DNA from: an uncultured delta proteobacterium
Lineage (GTDB): Bacteria > Desulfobacterota > Binatia > UBA9968
DNA length: 64,000 nucleotides
Direction of reading: 5' to 3'
Assembly (NCBI GenBank): GCA_963727625.1
Contig: CAVSHR010000004.1
Location: 672,001 to 736,000, forward strand
Within the stretch, counting starts at the first letter, position 1. Every line of letters starts with the position of its first letter. The notes beneath the pieces are model-generated. The model saw only the letters and a list, made by a program, of their open reading frames with translations. It was not told the origin of the DNA and made no database searches. Of the stretch, positions 1 through 44,453 are shown in pieces. Position numbers and translations under genes: made by a program.

Positions 1-536
1 AAAGTCTCGCCGGGAATTTTTCGGAGCTTGCCGGCGATGCGAAATTCCTGCTCGCCGATCTTTAGCCGGTCGTCGACCCGGGCGTTGAATTGCAGCATGA
101 CGTTCTCATCGACCAGCGCGTTGGCGCCGCGATGAAAGCTTGCCAAGGATAAAACCGGTTCGGTCTCGAGGGCGCCGTAATACGGGAAGCTGCCGCTCAG
201 CGCGCGCACTTGCACCAGACGCGACTGGCCGCTGTGGGTAAAGTAAACCATCGAGGCAAAGCCGATCTGACGCGATTGCTCGCCGCCGAGGGAGCGGAAC
301 AGAGCTTCATCTTCTGCGGAAAACGGCTCGCGGCTCTCCAGCGCGAGATCGGCGCCGAGCAGGCTTTTCGATTGCAACTGCACGCTCGACTGTAAATTTT
401 CGCGAAACGAATAGACCGCCACCACCGACGCTACGGCCAAGACCACGCTGGACATGGACAGCAGCAAGGGACGCAGGCCGCGACGGCCATCGCGCAGCGC
501 CAGGCGCCACACCCAGAGTTTGAACAGCGCGTTCAT
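1..536 (-). CDS. ybbP: FtsX-like ABC permease (YbbP type), 5' part; runs off the window edge
   Basis: Manual translation from ATG 536: MNALFKLWVWRLALRDGRRGLRPLLLSMSSVVLAVASVVAVYSFRENLQSSVQLQSKSLLGADLALESR. It lies downstream of ybbA, with tesA divergent, matching the known ybbP-ybbA-tesA synteny. Confidence 0.85.
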   Translation of the reverse strand, partial: MNALFKLWVWRLALRDGRRGLRPLLLSMSSVVLAVASVVAVYSFRENLQSSVQLQSKSLLGADLALESREPFSAEDEALFRSLGGEQSRQIGFASMVYFTHSGQSRLVQVRALSGSFPYYGALETEPVLSLASFHRGANALVDENVMLQFNARVDDRLKIGEQEFRIAGKLRKIPGET

Positions 537-42692: not shown

Positions 42693-42723
42693 AAAGCCCC
42701 GAATCTTAGCAGACCGGGGCTTT
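42693..42723. terminator. Hairpin downstream of grxD
   Basis: AAAGCCCCG ... CGGGGCTTT. Confidence 0.55.
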
Positions 42724-42727
42724 GTTT

Positions 42728-43051
42728 TTACTTGGAGAAGGCTGTTTTCAAAATCGGCTCGAGCTCGCCTCTTTCGTGCATCTCGTGCACGATGTCGCAG
42801 CCGCCGACGAACTTGCCATCGATGTAGATCTGCGGGATGGTCGGCCAATTGGAGTAGCGCTTGATGCCGTCGCGCAACGCCGGATCGGCGAGCACATCGT
42901 CGCTGGCGAACGGGAATCCGTAGGACTTGAGGATCTCCACCGTGTGCGCCGAAAAACCGCACTGGGGGAAATCCGGAGTGCCCTTCATGTAAAGCATGAT
43001 TTTATTGTTTTTTACCTTTTCATCGATCTTGCCCAAGACGTCATCCGCCAT
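42728..43051 (-). CDS. grxD: Monothiol glutaredoxin Grx4
   Basis: YMKGTPDFPQCGFS, WPTIPQ, GGCDI. Confidence 0.96.
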   Translation of the reverse strand: MADDVLGKIDEKVKNNKIMLYMKGTPDFPQCGFSAHTVEILKSYGFPFASDDVLADPALRDGIKRYSNWPTIPQIYIDGKFVGGCDIVHEMHERGELEPILKTAFSK

Positions 43052-43076: not shown

Positions 43077-43331
43077 TCAAGTCCCCAGTTTCTCCCACTG
43101 GGCGGGGCTAAAGGTTTTGAGTGCCAGGGCGTGGATTCGCTCGTCTTTCATCGGCTCCTTCAACGCTTCGTTGACCATGCGGTGTTGCTCAAGCAGGCCT
43201 TTGCCTTCAAACGCCGGTGAAACGATGATCAGCTGCCAATGATCACCACCGCCCGTGAGATCTTGCGTCTCGACCAGCGACACCGGCAGCGACACCGCCA
43301 AAGTAGCTTTAATCTCCTCCGGAGTAATCAT
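43077..43331 (-). CDS. bolA: BolA/IbaG family protein
   Basis: GGGDHW, SPAFEGK..LEQHRMV, IHALALKT. Confidence 0.93.
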   Translation of the reverse strand: MITPEEIKATLAVSLPVSLVETQDLTGGGDHWQLIIVSPAFEGKGLLEQHRMVNEALKEPMKDERIHALALKTFSPAQWEKLGT

Positions 43332-43393: not shown

Positions 43394-43900
43394 TCATTTG
43401 CCGACGGGTCCGTAGAAATCGGGCCGAACTTTCTTCAACATTGCGCGCAAGTCCATGCGCAACTCGTCTAACGTGGGCCTTCCGAGGTACCAATAGCCGC
43501 AATAGAGATTGTGAATCGTGAGATCCGGCAAGAGTGCAAAGGTATACGGCATGGCGGTCACCCCCCGGCTTTTCGAGGTTTCCGTCATCTCGAGCAGCTT
43601 CACGACTTTTCGCTCGGGATCGCTCAAAAACGTATAGGTGGCGCCGAGCCCGGTCCTAAAGGCGTCGCTCACTTCCGGGGCATCGACGCTCGCAACCGCC
43701 AGTTTGCAATAGTTAACCGCCAGCTCTTCTTGAAGTTCAATGTAATGGCGCAACTGCACCTGGCACTTCGCTCACCAAAAGCCGCGATAAAAGGACAGGA
43801 TGAACGGAAACTTGCCGACCAGATCGGAAAGCTTAGCCCTTTGACCGTCCTGGTCAGGCAGCTCGAAATCAGGAAAACGTTGACCGATCGTGAGATTCAT
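43394..43900 (-). CDS. AhpC/TSA peroxiredoxin-like selenoprotein (UxxC; TGA at 43774-43772 = Sec43)
   Basis: MNLTIGQRFPDFELPDQDGQRAKLSDLVGKFPFILSFYRGFW-U-AKCQVQLRHY... is in frame with ORF 43394..43759; GAGGTG RBS. Confidence 0.9.
43747..43771 (-). promoter_or_regulatory. Bacterial SECIS-like hairpin
   Basis: 11-nt spacer after TGA, then GGTGC-AGTT-GCGCC (43760-43747). Confidence 0.7.
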
Positions 43901-43950
43901 ATTCGCACCTCAAAGCTAAAGTCCCGAGACTAAAATTCCGCCAGCGTTTC

Positions 43951-44172
43951 TTAAGGGTAGCCCTTCGCCATCTCGGCGAGAAAACCTTCTTTCTCTAATT
44001 GCAGCATTAGCGATAGATCGACAAACTGCTCCGGTTTGGCTGCCTTGGCGTTTGGCAATTTTACCACCACCTCTTCGAGTATGAATTGAATGCCTCTGAG
44101 CATCGGATAAGTCCGCTTCAACACGATTTTCACAAATGCCGCGTGGGGTTGCGTCGAGTGCTTCCGGATCAT
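43951..44172 (-). pseudogene. C-terminal remnant of an NMT1/THI5-type ABC substrate-binding protein
   Basis: YPMLRGIQFILEE...PNAKAAKPEQFVDLSLMLQLEKEGF resembles an SBP C-terminus; N-terminal ~250 aa absent. Confidence 0.55.
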
Positions 44173-44195: not shown

Positions 44196-44453
44196 TCAGT
44201 ACGCCTTGGCAGTGGAACCGGCTTCTTTGTCGTCGTTCGAGACACCGAGCTTCATCTCCAGGGCCTTGACTCGTTTTTCAAGAGTCCGTACCTGCGCTTG
44301 AGACTGCGCAAGCTGTTTTTCGACGATCGAAACCACCGATGCGGTATCGCCCCACCAGGAATAACCGGCGAGTACACCAACCATCACCGAGCCGATACCG
44401 GCCAAAATCCAATAGAACCGATGGGATTCGCGCGAACGTTTAACCCAAGGCAT
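44196..44453 (-). CDS. Small membrane-anchored coiled-coil protein
   Basis: One TM segment (FYWILAGIGSVMVGVLAGY) followed by a heptad-like region. Confidence 0.6.
   Translation of the reverse strand: MPWVKRSRESHRFYWILAGIGSVMVGVLAGYSWWGDTASVVSIVEKQLAQSQAQVRTLEKRVKALEMKLGVSNDDKEAGSTAKAY

Follow-up and report, generated by a model that had tools for sequence, protein, structure and literature searches.

The window analysed here (the whole stretch of DNA, 64,000 nt long) carries on its minus strand a redoxin gene (43394–43900) that is read through an in-frame TGA and consists of 168 codons and a TGA stop codon (43396–43394). Its product, 168 residues long, has an AhpC/TSA fold. The start codon, ATG at 43900–43898, and a Shine-Dalgarno-like GAGGTG (43906–43911, minus strand) located 5 nt 5′ of it are read directly from the sequence, and an ATG occupies the aligned start position in 49 of 50 orthologue loci. 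The N-terminal frame runs from this ATG as MNLTIGQRFPDFELPDQDG...FYRGFW, meets the in-frame TGA (43772–43774, minus strand; residue U43) and continues as AKCQVQLRH..., which gives the motif FYRGFW-U-AKC, i.e. W-U-A-K-C. The second residue of the U-x-x-C pair, Cys46, is encoded at 43763–43765 on the same strand. The part of the frame that follows the TGA is the 121-residue open reading frame of translation table 11 (43394–43759). The original prediction had described this 168-residue frame together with the GAGGTG ribosome-binding site and a hairpin, GGUGC-AGUU-GCGCC, set off from the TGA by an 11-nt spacer; the frame is reproduced from the sequence and all of these elements are present. The match of the Pfam domain AhpC-TSA (PF00578) spans the TGA, from residue 5 to residue 129 (76 bits with a cut-off of 26, E-value 3.1e-21).

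Two co-oriented genes follow. The bolA gene (43077–43331, minus strand; 84 residues, PF01722) lies 62 nt 3′ of the redoxin gene, and grxD, which encodes a monothiol glutaredoxin with a CGFS motif (42728–43051, minus strand; 107 residues, PF00462), starts 25 nt after bolA. An inverted repeat, AAAGCCCCG / CGGGGCTTT, with a T-rich tail (42693–42723, minus strand; read directly from the sequence) is found just 3′ of the grxD stop codon and is a possible end of the transcription unit. It is not listed by the terminator scan, probably because its 13-nt loop exceeds the limit of the scan. Upstream of the redoxin gene there are two small open reading frames on the minus strand (43951–44172, 73 residues, and 44196–44453, 85 residues) with no Pfam match; the shorter one is conserved beside the redoxin gene in most loci of the same genus (57–75% identity). 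No tRNA gene is found within the 64-kb window.

The redoxin gene is found in 57 of 61 related genomes in a six-frame search, at 51–90% identity and in three families of one order, and each orthologue match listed contains the in-frame TGA. The four genomes that give no match are 80–95% complete. Fifty orthologue loci were fetched, 30 from the six-frame search and 20 further ones. In 49 of these 50 loci the TGA, at codon 43 or 44, falls into a single alignment column and precedes x-K-C (48 of 49 if locus L017 is set aside; genome G035 enters the 57/61 tally only). The motif W-U-G-K-C is also present in the fiftieth locus, L044, as seen via its named twin L079. Codons 26–42, immediately 5′ of the TGA, display ordinary synonymous variation and a conserved protein sequence, so the upstream segment evolves as coding sequence. 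Poor conservation of this segment or a sequencing error at the TGA had been named in advance as grounds for abandoning the gene, and neither applies: relatives retain both the TGA and the coding character of the segment. Of 301 genomes sampled evenly across the phylum, two give matches at E ≤ 1e-25, that of the window and one of family f1; among the genomes searched, the orthologue group is found only in the order to which the window belongs. Weaker second matches with 29–37% identity (G031:C753:4945-5409, G035:C73:1671-2135, G015:C271:7534-8010 and G014:C12:111464-111715) each contain one in-frame TGA, which suggests that the lineage has further Prx-like selenoprotein paralogues.

A HMMER search returned 3851 proteins at E ≤ 0.001, 19 of them at E ≤ 1e-30, and 27 homologues were chosen for covering most of the query. 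The column of U43 holds Cys in 24 of these full-length proteins, Ser in one and Asp in two, and the column of Cys46 is Asp or Glu in all 27. Eighty named genome loci were also compared, of which 78 cover the U column (the partial hits L103 and L105 were left out); here the column is TGA in 25, Cys in 19, Thr in 33 and Ser in one. Eighteen loci from MAGs labelled ‘Candidatus Binatia’ or ‘Deltaproteobacteria’ combine the TGA with a Cys at +3. Six of the 78, from other phyla, contain the TGA in RGYY-U-P-K-D, 15 carry Cys in the form C-P-(K/R)-(D/E), and four, from Flavobacteriales/Bacteroidia, carry C-P-G-C. Another 34 loci are of the BCP/PrxQ type, with the peroxiredoxin Thr (33) or a Ser (1) in the U column, and the peroxidatic Cys of 32 of them is aligned with Cys46. 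The Sec/Cys pairs that a homologue alignment was proposed to look for are thus found both among the full-length proteins and among the named loci.

The U-P-K-D Sec forms (L083, L091, L093, L094, L095 and L102, with the U column at about 1624–1626 in each locus) come from MAGs of Neomarinimicrobiota, Poribacteria, Gemmatimonadota and Alphaproteobacteria and are 45–49% identical to the redoxin. They have Sec with no second Cys at +3 and a SECIS hairpin of their own with an AGUU loop. Although their phylum labels differ, five of the six proteins are near-identical, which points to either transfer or wrongly labelled bins. The term ‘UxxD’ is absent from the text of a 2026 review. The maximum-likelihood tree of 38 rows (32 family members and six outgroup rows) separates the family from the outgroup with a support of 99/99. 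Within the family it requires a minimum of two exchanges between Sec and Cys, and three Cys forms from Spirochaetota fall among the Sec forms with U-P-K-D (starred support). L104, a Phycisphaeraceae MAG contig that groups with the outgroup of the tree, encodes a Prx-like protein with FFRGHW-U-L-S-C, another UxxC Sec form, and the Acidobacteria gp13 MAG contigs L109 and L110, the other two of the 34 BCP/PrxQ-type loci, encode BCP-type proteins with a TGA at the peroxidatic position (T-P-T-U), i.e. classical Sec-Prx. Two full-length Cys homologues, P0122 and P0145, are 281–283 residues long and have a C-terminal extension. One member of the homologue alignment matches cold-shock-domain models (CspD, 6e-11), which suggests a redoxin–CSD fusion.

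The minimal bSECIS hairpin (43747–43760, minus strand) lies 11 nt 3′ of the UGA, with 16 nt between the UGA and the loop. Read directly from the sequence, it consists of the stem strands GGUGC (43760–43756) and GCGCC (43751–43747) and the loop AGUU (43755–43752), preceded by the spacer (43771–43761). The bSECIS model, as given in PMC13188914, has a loop of 3–9 nt with a G within its first two positions, a stem of 4–16 bp, a UGA-to-loop distance of 16–37 nt and a minimum free energy of −7.5 kcal/mol or lower; the redoxin hairpin agrees with it in every respect (AGUU loop, 5 bp, 16 nt and −8.0 kcal/mol for the hairpin-only centroid). Its stability is not distinguishable from that of shuffled sequence (z of +0.64; +0.23 and +0.62). 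The synonymous codon entropy of codons 46–51 is 0.34, 0, 0.25, 0, 0.34 and 0.35 in 48 sequences, compared with an average of 1.21 for the 92 informative codons of the same set, and the five informative codons of the tested codon window 47–52 average 0.38, the second lowest value of 88 such windows. Leu50, the source of the UU of the loop, is TTG or TTA in 48 of 48 sequences and CTN in none, and other Leu columns are mostly CTN; the AGUU loop falls in Gln-Leu codons that are favoured at the protein level too.

Among the close relatives (46 sequences) the stem shows next to no sequence change, and covariation therefore yields no information there. In the six distant Sec forms with U-P-K-D, however, a hairpin occupies the same register, with the loop AGUU and the stems GUCGUC/GACGAC and UUCUCC/GGAGAA. 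When these forms are included in a joint alignment of 52 Sec forms, changes on both sides are seen in six of seven stem pairs (31 cells). The covariation score is 0.274, compared to 0.056 for shuffled data (0 of 500 shuffles reach the observed score) and at most 0.207 for slid partners, with the compensatory changes tracing to only about two independent distant lineages and hence to a small number of events. All inner five pairs form in 50 of the 52 Sec forms but in only one of 14 Cys forms, and the fraction of paired cells is 80.5% in Sec forms versus 52.0% in Cys forms. Both Sec exceptions contain a variant hairpin at the same place: L048 has seven pairs around a 7-nt loop, and L053 a bulged stem of seven pairs with a 6-nt loop. 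Four Cys forms from Chloroflexota and Alphaproteobacteria (L088, L090, L097 and L098) have a partial hairpin, GCGC-AGAU-GCGC, in the SECIS register, which could be a fossil SECIS or plain GC-rich Ala/Arg codons. A SECIS prediction had been suggested as a check of the gene, and the element stands by the published bSECIS model, by frozen synonymous sites and, once the distant Sec forms are added, by covariation.

The genome of the window is 98% complete by markers and encodes the machinery for selenocysteine insertion, the absence of which would have spoken against the original prediction. The genes of SelA (527 bits) and SelB (wing domain, 76 bits) adjoin each other. The selD gene (377 bits) contains one in-frame TGA (KAAG-U-AAK) and is itself a selenoprotein gene; this TGA is followed by GUGCAA-GUC-UUGCAC, the loop of which opens with G-U, as in the redoxin hairpin. 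The tRNA-Sec gene scores 76.7 bits, and ARAGORN assigns it the anticodon tca. The selD gene is found outside the window (G000:C5:718540-719466), directly 3′ of selA and selB in a single cluster, and the tRNA-Sec gene lies about 50 kb beyond this cluster. The proposal of a hidden selenoprotein with a redoxin fold is strongly supported by comparative and computational evidence, namely domain continuity, the conserved TGA, Sec/Cys pairs, the SECIS and the Sec machinery, and the mid-gene TGA of the redoxin gene almost certainly encodes selenocysteine within a single intact gene.

The AF2 model of the redoxin, built with a 34-sequence alignment, is of high predicted quality (pLDDT of 93.3, pTM of 0.90). 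Its best structural matches are BCP/Prx proteins of the same fold (BCP/PrxQ, PDB ids 2cx3, 2ywn, 5epf and 3hjp; TM-scores of 0.78–0.82), and ResA (PDB id 1st9) is matched as well. In the model, U43 is placed directly before a long helix (residues 44–63). U43 falls in the column of the catalytic Thr of peroxiredoxins, and the peroxidatic Cys pairs with Cys46, both in the BCP-type loci and in PDB entries 2ywn and 2cx3. The catalytic Arg of the Aeropyrum BCP (2cx3) pairs with Pro118 of the redoxin (AKRAVF versus AMPYTF), and Pro118 is invariant in the two homologue alignments made. Thus, despite the shared fold, the peroxiredoxin triad is absent: Sec stands for the Thr of PxxxTxxC and Pro for the Arg. 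With both residues missing, the redoxin is not classed as a peroxiredoxin. In a C-x-x-C centre the N-terminal Cys is the nucleophile, and thioredoxin-like proteins have a Pro in place of the Prx Arg. The redoxin is most likely a thioredoxin-like selenol/thiol oxidoreductase, an assignment that is based on the Prx/ResA alignment and on the general correspondence between Trx and Prx active sites.

UxxC is the standard redox motif of a known class of selenoproteins, the Prx-like thiol:disulfide oxidoreductases (PMC1088965), in which Sec is found in UxxC and replaces the TxxC/TxxU register of true Prx (PMC1088965, PMC9312934). The class is entered in the GOS study as ‘Prx-like 1, pfam00578, UxxC’ (PMC2398784) and is represented by WP_010940744.1 (PMC13188914, Table 1). 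The U-A-K-C motif had been called atypical in the original prediction; this has to be withdrawn, because UxxC is what defines the class in PMC1088965. By the domain-plus-motif definition, the redoxin is a member of the Prx-like UxxC selenoproteins. Like the UxxC/UxxU proteins named ‘Prx-like protein’ or ‘Prx-like 1’ by Zhang, Gladyshev and co-workers, it combines PF00578 with UxxC in place of the TxxU of Sec-Prx, has Cys homologues and a bSECIS directly after the UGA, and its function is predicted. Unlike them, it belongs to an orthologue group of its own, which is confined to one order and marked by the signature FYRG(Y/F)W-U-x-K-C, and its nearest relatives are U/C-P-K-D/E forms without the second Cys.

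ResA/TlpA/CcmG-type proteins, which match the redoxin sequence at E-values of about 1e-7, likewise begin their active-site helix with a centre of the C-x-x-C type. They serve cytochrome maturation as CxxC proteins that are exported or anchored in the membrane, whereas the redoxin lacks both signal and anchor, relies on Sec and resembles BCP in its C-terminal part. The redoxin sequence begins at position 1 of the domain profile, which leaves no room for a signal peptide and points to a cytoplasmic location. The best-scoring curated NCBIfam model is that of the SelL-related redox protein (NF040769), a Prx-like redox family. No NCBIfam model claims the redoxin: NF040769 gives 43.2 bits where its cut-off is 120, and only weak matches to it are seen for 29 of the 34 members of the redoxin family.

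A mechanism can be proposed on this basis. SelB with Sec-tRNA(Sec) would recognise the GGUGC-AGUU-GCGCC hairpin and insert selenocysteine at residue 43. U43 would cap the N-terminus of the active-site helix and, together with Cys46 one turn on, make up a thioredoxin-like U-x-x-C centre, which might cycle between the selenol/thiol and selenenylsulfide states. The redoxin would then act as a thioredoxin/ResA-type reductase on a BCP-like scaffold, with disulfides or sulfenic acids as its candidate physiological substrates. Since the nearest homologues outside the order have Asp or Glu in place of Cys46, this selenenylsulfide cycle cannot serve the wider family. Taken together, the gene is very probably single and intact and its product a selenoprotein of the cytoplasm that belongs with the Prx-like thiol:disulfide oxidoreductases.

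Other readings of the gene make different use of these data. If the TGA terminated translation, the locus would be a pseudogene, contain a sequencing error or encode a 42-residue peptide and a 121-residue protein that starts at GTG 43759. Public protein predictions look as such a reading would have them: the best 120 of 478 matches in a collection of 5.8 billion proteins are all 118–137 residues long, around 120, and cover 68–71% of the query, i.e. gene callers cut the redoxin gene short after the TGA in all 120 of these best predictions. One orthologue, L044 (G018:C14:853904-857359), has a frame break within roughly its first 23 codons (two overlapping HSPs), which may be an assembly indel or a truly broken copy. 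Termination is nonetheless extremely improbable, given that 57 of 61 genomes share the TGA at the same position, that the 42 N-terminal codons are conserved with synonymous variation and that the 121-residue piece would be devoid of strand β1 and of the active site of the fold. An alternative code, in which TGA is a sense codon genome-wide, is ruled out: the redoxin gene and many of its orthologues stop at TGA. The main functional rival accepts the selenoprotein and makes it a peroxidase with GPx-like chemistry, in which Sec43 would attack the peroxide, Cys46 would resolve the selenenic acid to the selenenylsulfide and Trx or Grx would recycle the enzyme. Other families employ Sec as a highly effective peroxidatic residue, the redoxin matches BCP/Prx structures best in both fold and sequence, the single-Cys/Sec C/U-P-K-D/E forms of the wider family are reminiscent of 1-Cys peroxidases, and a glutaredoxin gene is nearby. 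However, U43 takes the place of the Thr and Pro118 that of the Arg, and the published family with such a register is classed as thiol:disulfide oxidoreductase rather than as Prx in PMC1088965 and PMC13188914. We therefore regard a Sec-based peroxidase as possible but rather unlikely and retain the thiol:disulfide oxidoreductase.

The neighbourhood of the gene raises the question of a functional link to bolA and grxD. The bolA gene adjoins the redoxin gene in the same orientation in 46 of the 50 orthologue loci (it is missing in L045, L048, L053 and L055), and grxD follows bolA in 32 of the 50. The flanks differ in family f3, with ThiF upstream and a GTPase downstream, but the prx–bolA pair is kept, which is modest evidence for selection on the pair. 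Neither bolA nor grxD is found within 1.5 kb on either side of 24 more distant homologue loci (0/24), so that the co-oriented arrangement upstream of bolA–grxD, as originally described, holds in the window and in most of the orthologue loci of the order but in none of the distant ones. The promoter and terminator scan, the counts of which are not above those of shuffled sequences, lists one minus-strand promoter-like site (44085–44058) and no minus-strand terminator-like site between the three genes. Small shares of the stretch are matched by public reads. A 184-nt contig from a metatranscriptomic library is identical to positions 43567–43750; it stops short of the TGA and of the intergenic gaps and may stem from DNA carry-over. 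The DNA contigs from public reads mostly represent the conserved part of grxD of other organisms.

A coupling of the Sec-redoxin to BolA and GrxD in one operon, for example as a redox regulator or protector of the BolA–Grx [2Fe-2S] module, would explain the recurrent co-oriented order, its persistence in f3 where the flanks have changed, and the three genes uninterrupted by a terminator-like site in the scan. Against it, the adjacency is limited to a single order, is lost even there in four of 50 loci, and is absent from all 24 distant ones. Moreover, the BolA of the window contains no Cys in its translation and cannot be a thiol-disulfide substrate. We consider such a coupling improbable. The link to Fe-S and redox homeostasis suggested in the original prediction thus retains the adjacency within the order in its favour and has the distant loci and the Cys-less BolA against it; it stays conjectural. 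More narrowly, the retention of the redoxin–bolA pair across the order, even where all other neighbours have changed, might mean that the Sec-redoxin serves the BolA/monothiol-glutaredoxin module as its dedicated redox partner, e.g. by protecting or resetting the Grx–BolA [2Fe-2S] complex under oxidative stress; this is distinctly doubtful. No paper that ties a selenoprotein or a peroxiredoxin-like redoxin to BolA was found, by title and abstract, in the literature searched.

The thiol:disulfide oxidoreductase described here is a genuine, unannotated and lineage-restricted member of a selenoprotein kind that has been known since about 2004–2005. What may be new, modestly, are the orthologue group, its U-P-K-D sister forms and the conserved pairing with bolA; the supplements of the cited papers might list the subfamily. 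The literature searched contained no paper that combines Binatia with selenocysteine or Binatota with selenoprotein. Because the best 120 public predictions are fragments that lack the active site, the whole orthologue group, which sits in soil and sediment MAGs labelled ‘Candidatus Binatia’ or ‘Deltaproteobacteria’, is mis-annotated, and selenoproteomes are under-counted as a result. The redoxin hairpin is a clean example of a very small SECIS, with 5 bp, a 4-nt loop and the minimum spacing. Sec and Cys forms, as well as U-x-x-C and U-x-x-D forms, coexist in the family, which makes it useful for studying Sec/Cys exchange. The linkage to bolA is a testable lead and no more. If the redoxin were a redox partner of the BolA/glutaredoxin module, this would be the first direct link of selenium use with Fe-S cluster trafficking, and the clade-specific gain of Cys46, where all other relatives carry Asp or Glu, would reflect adaptation to this module.
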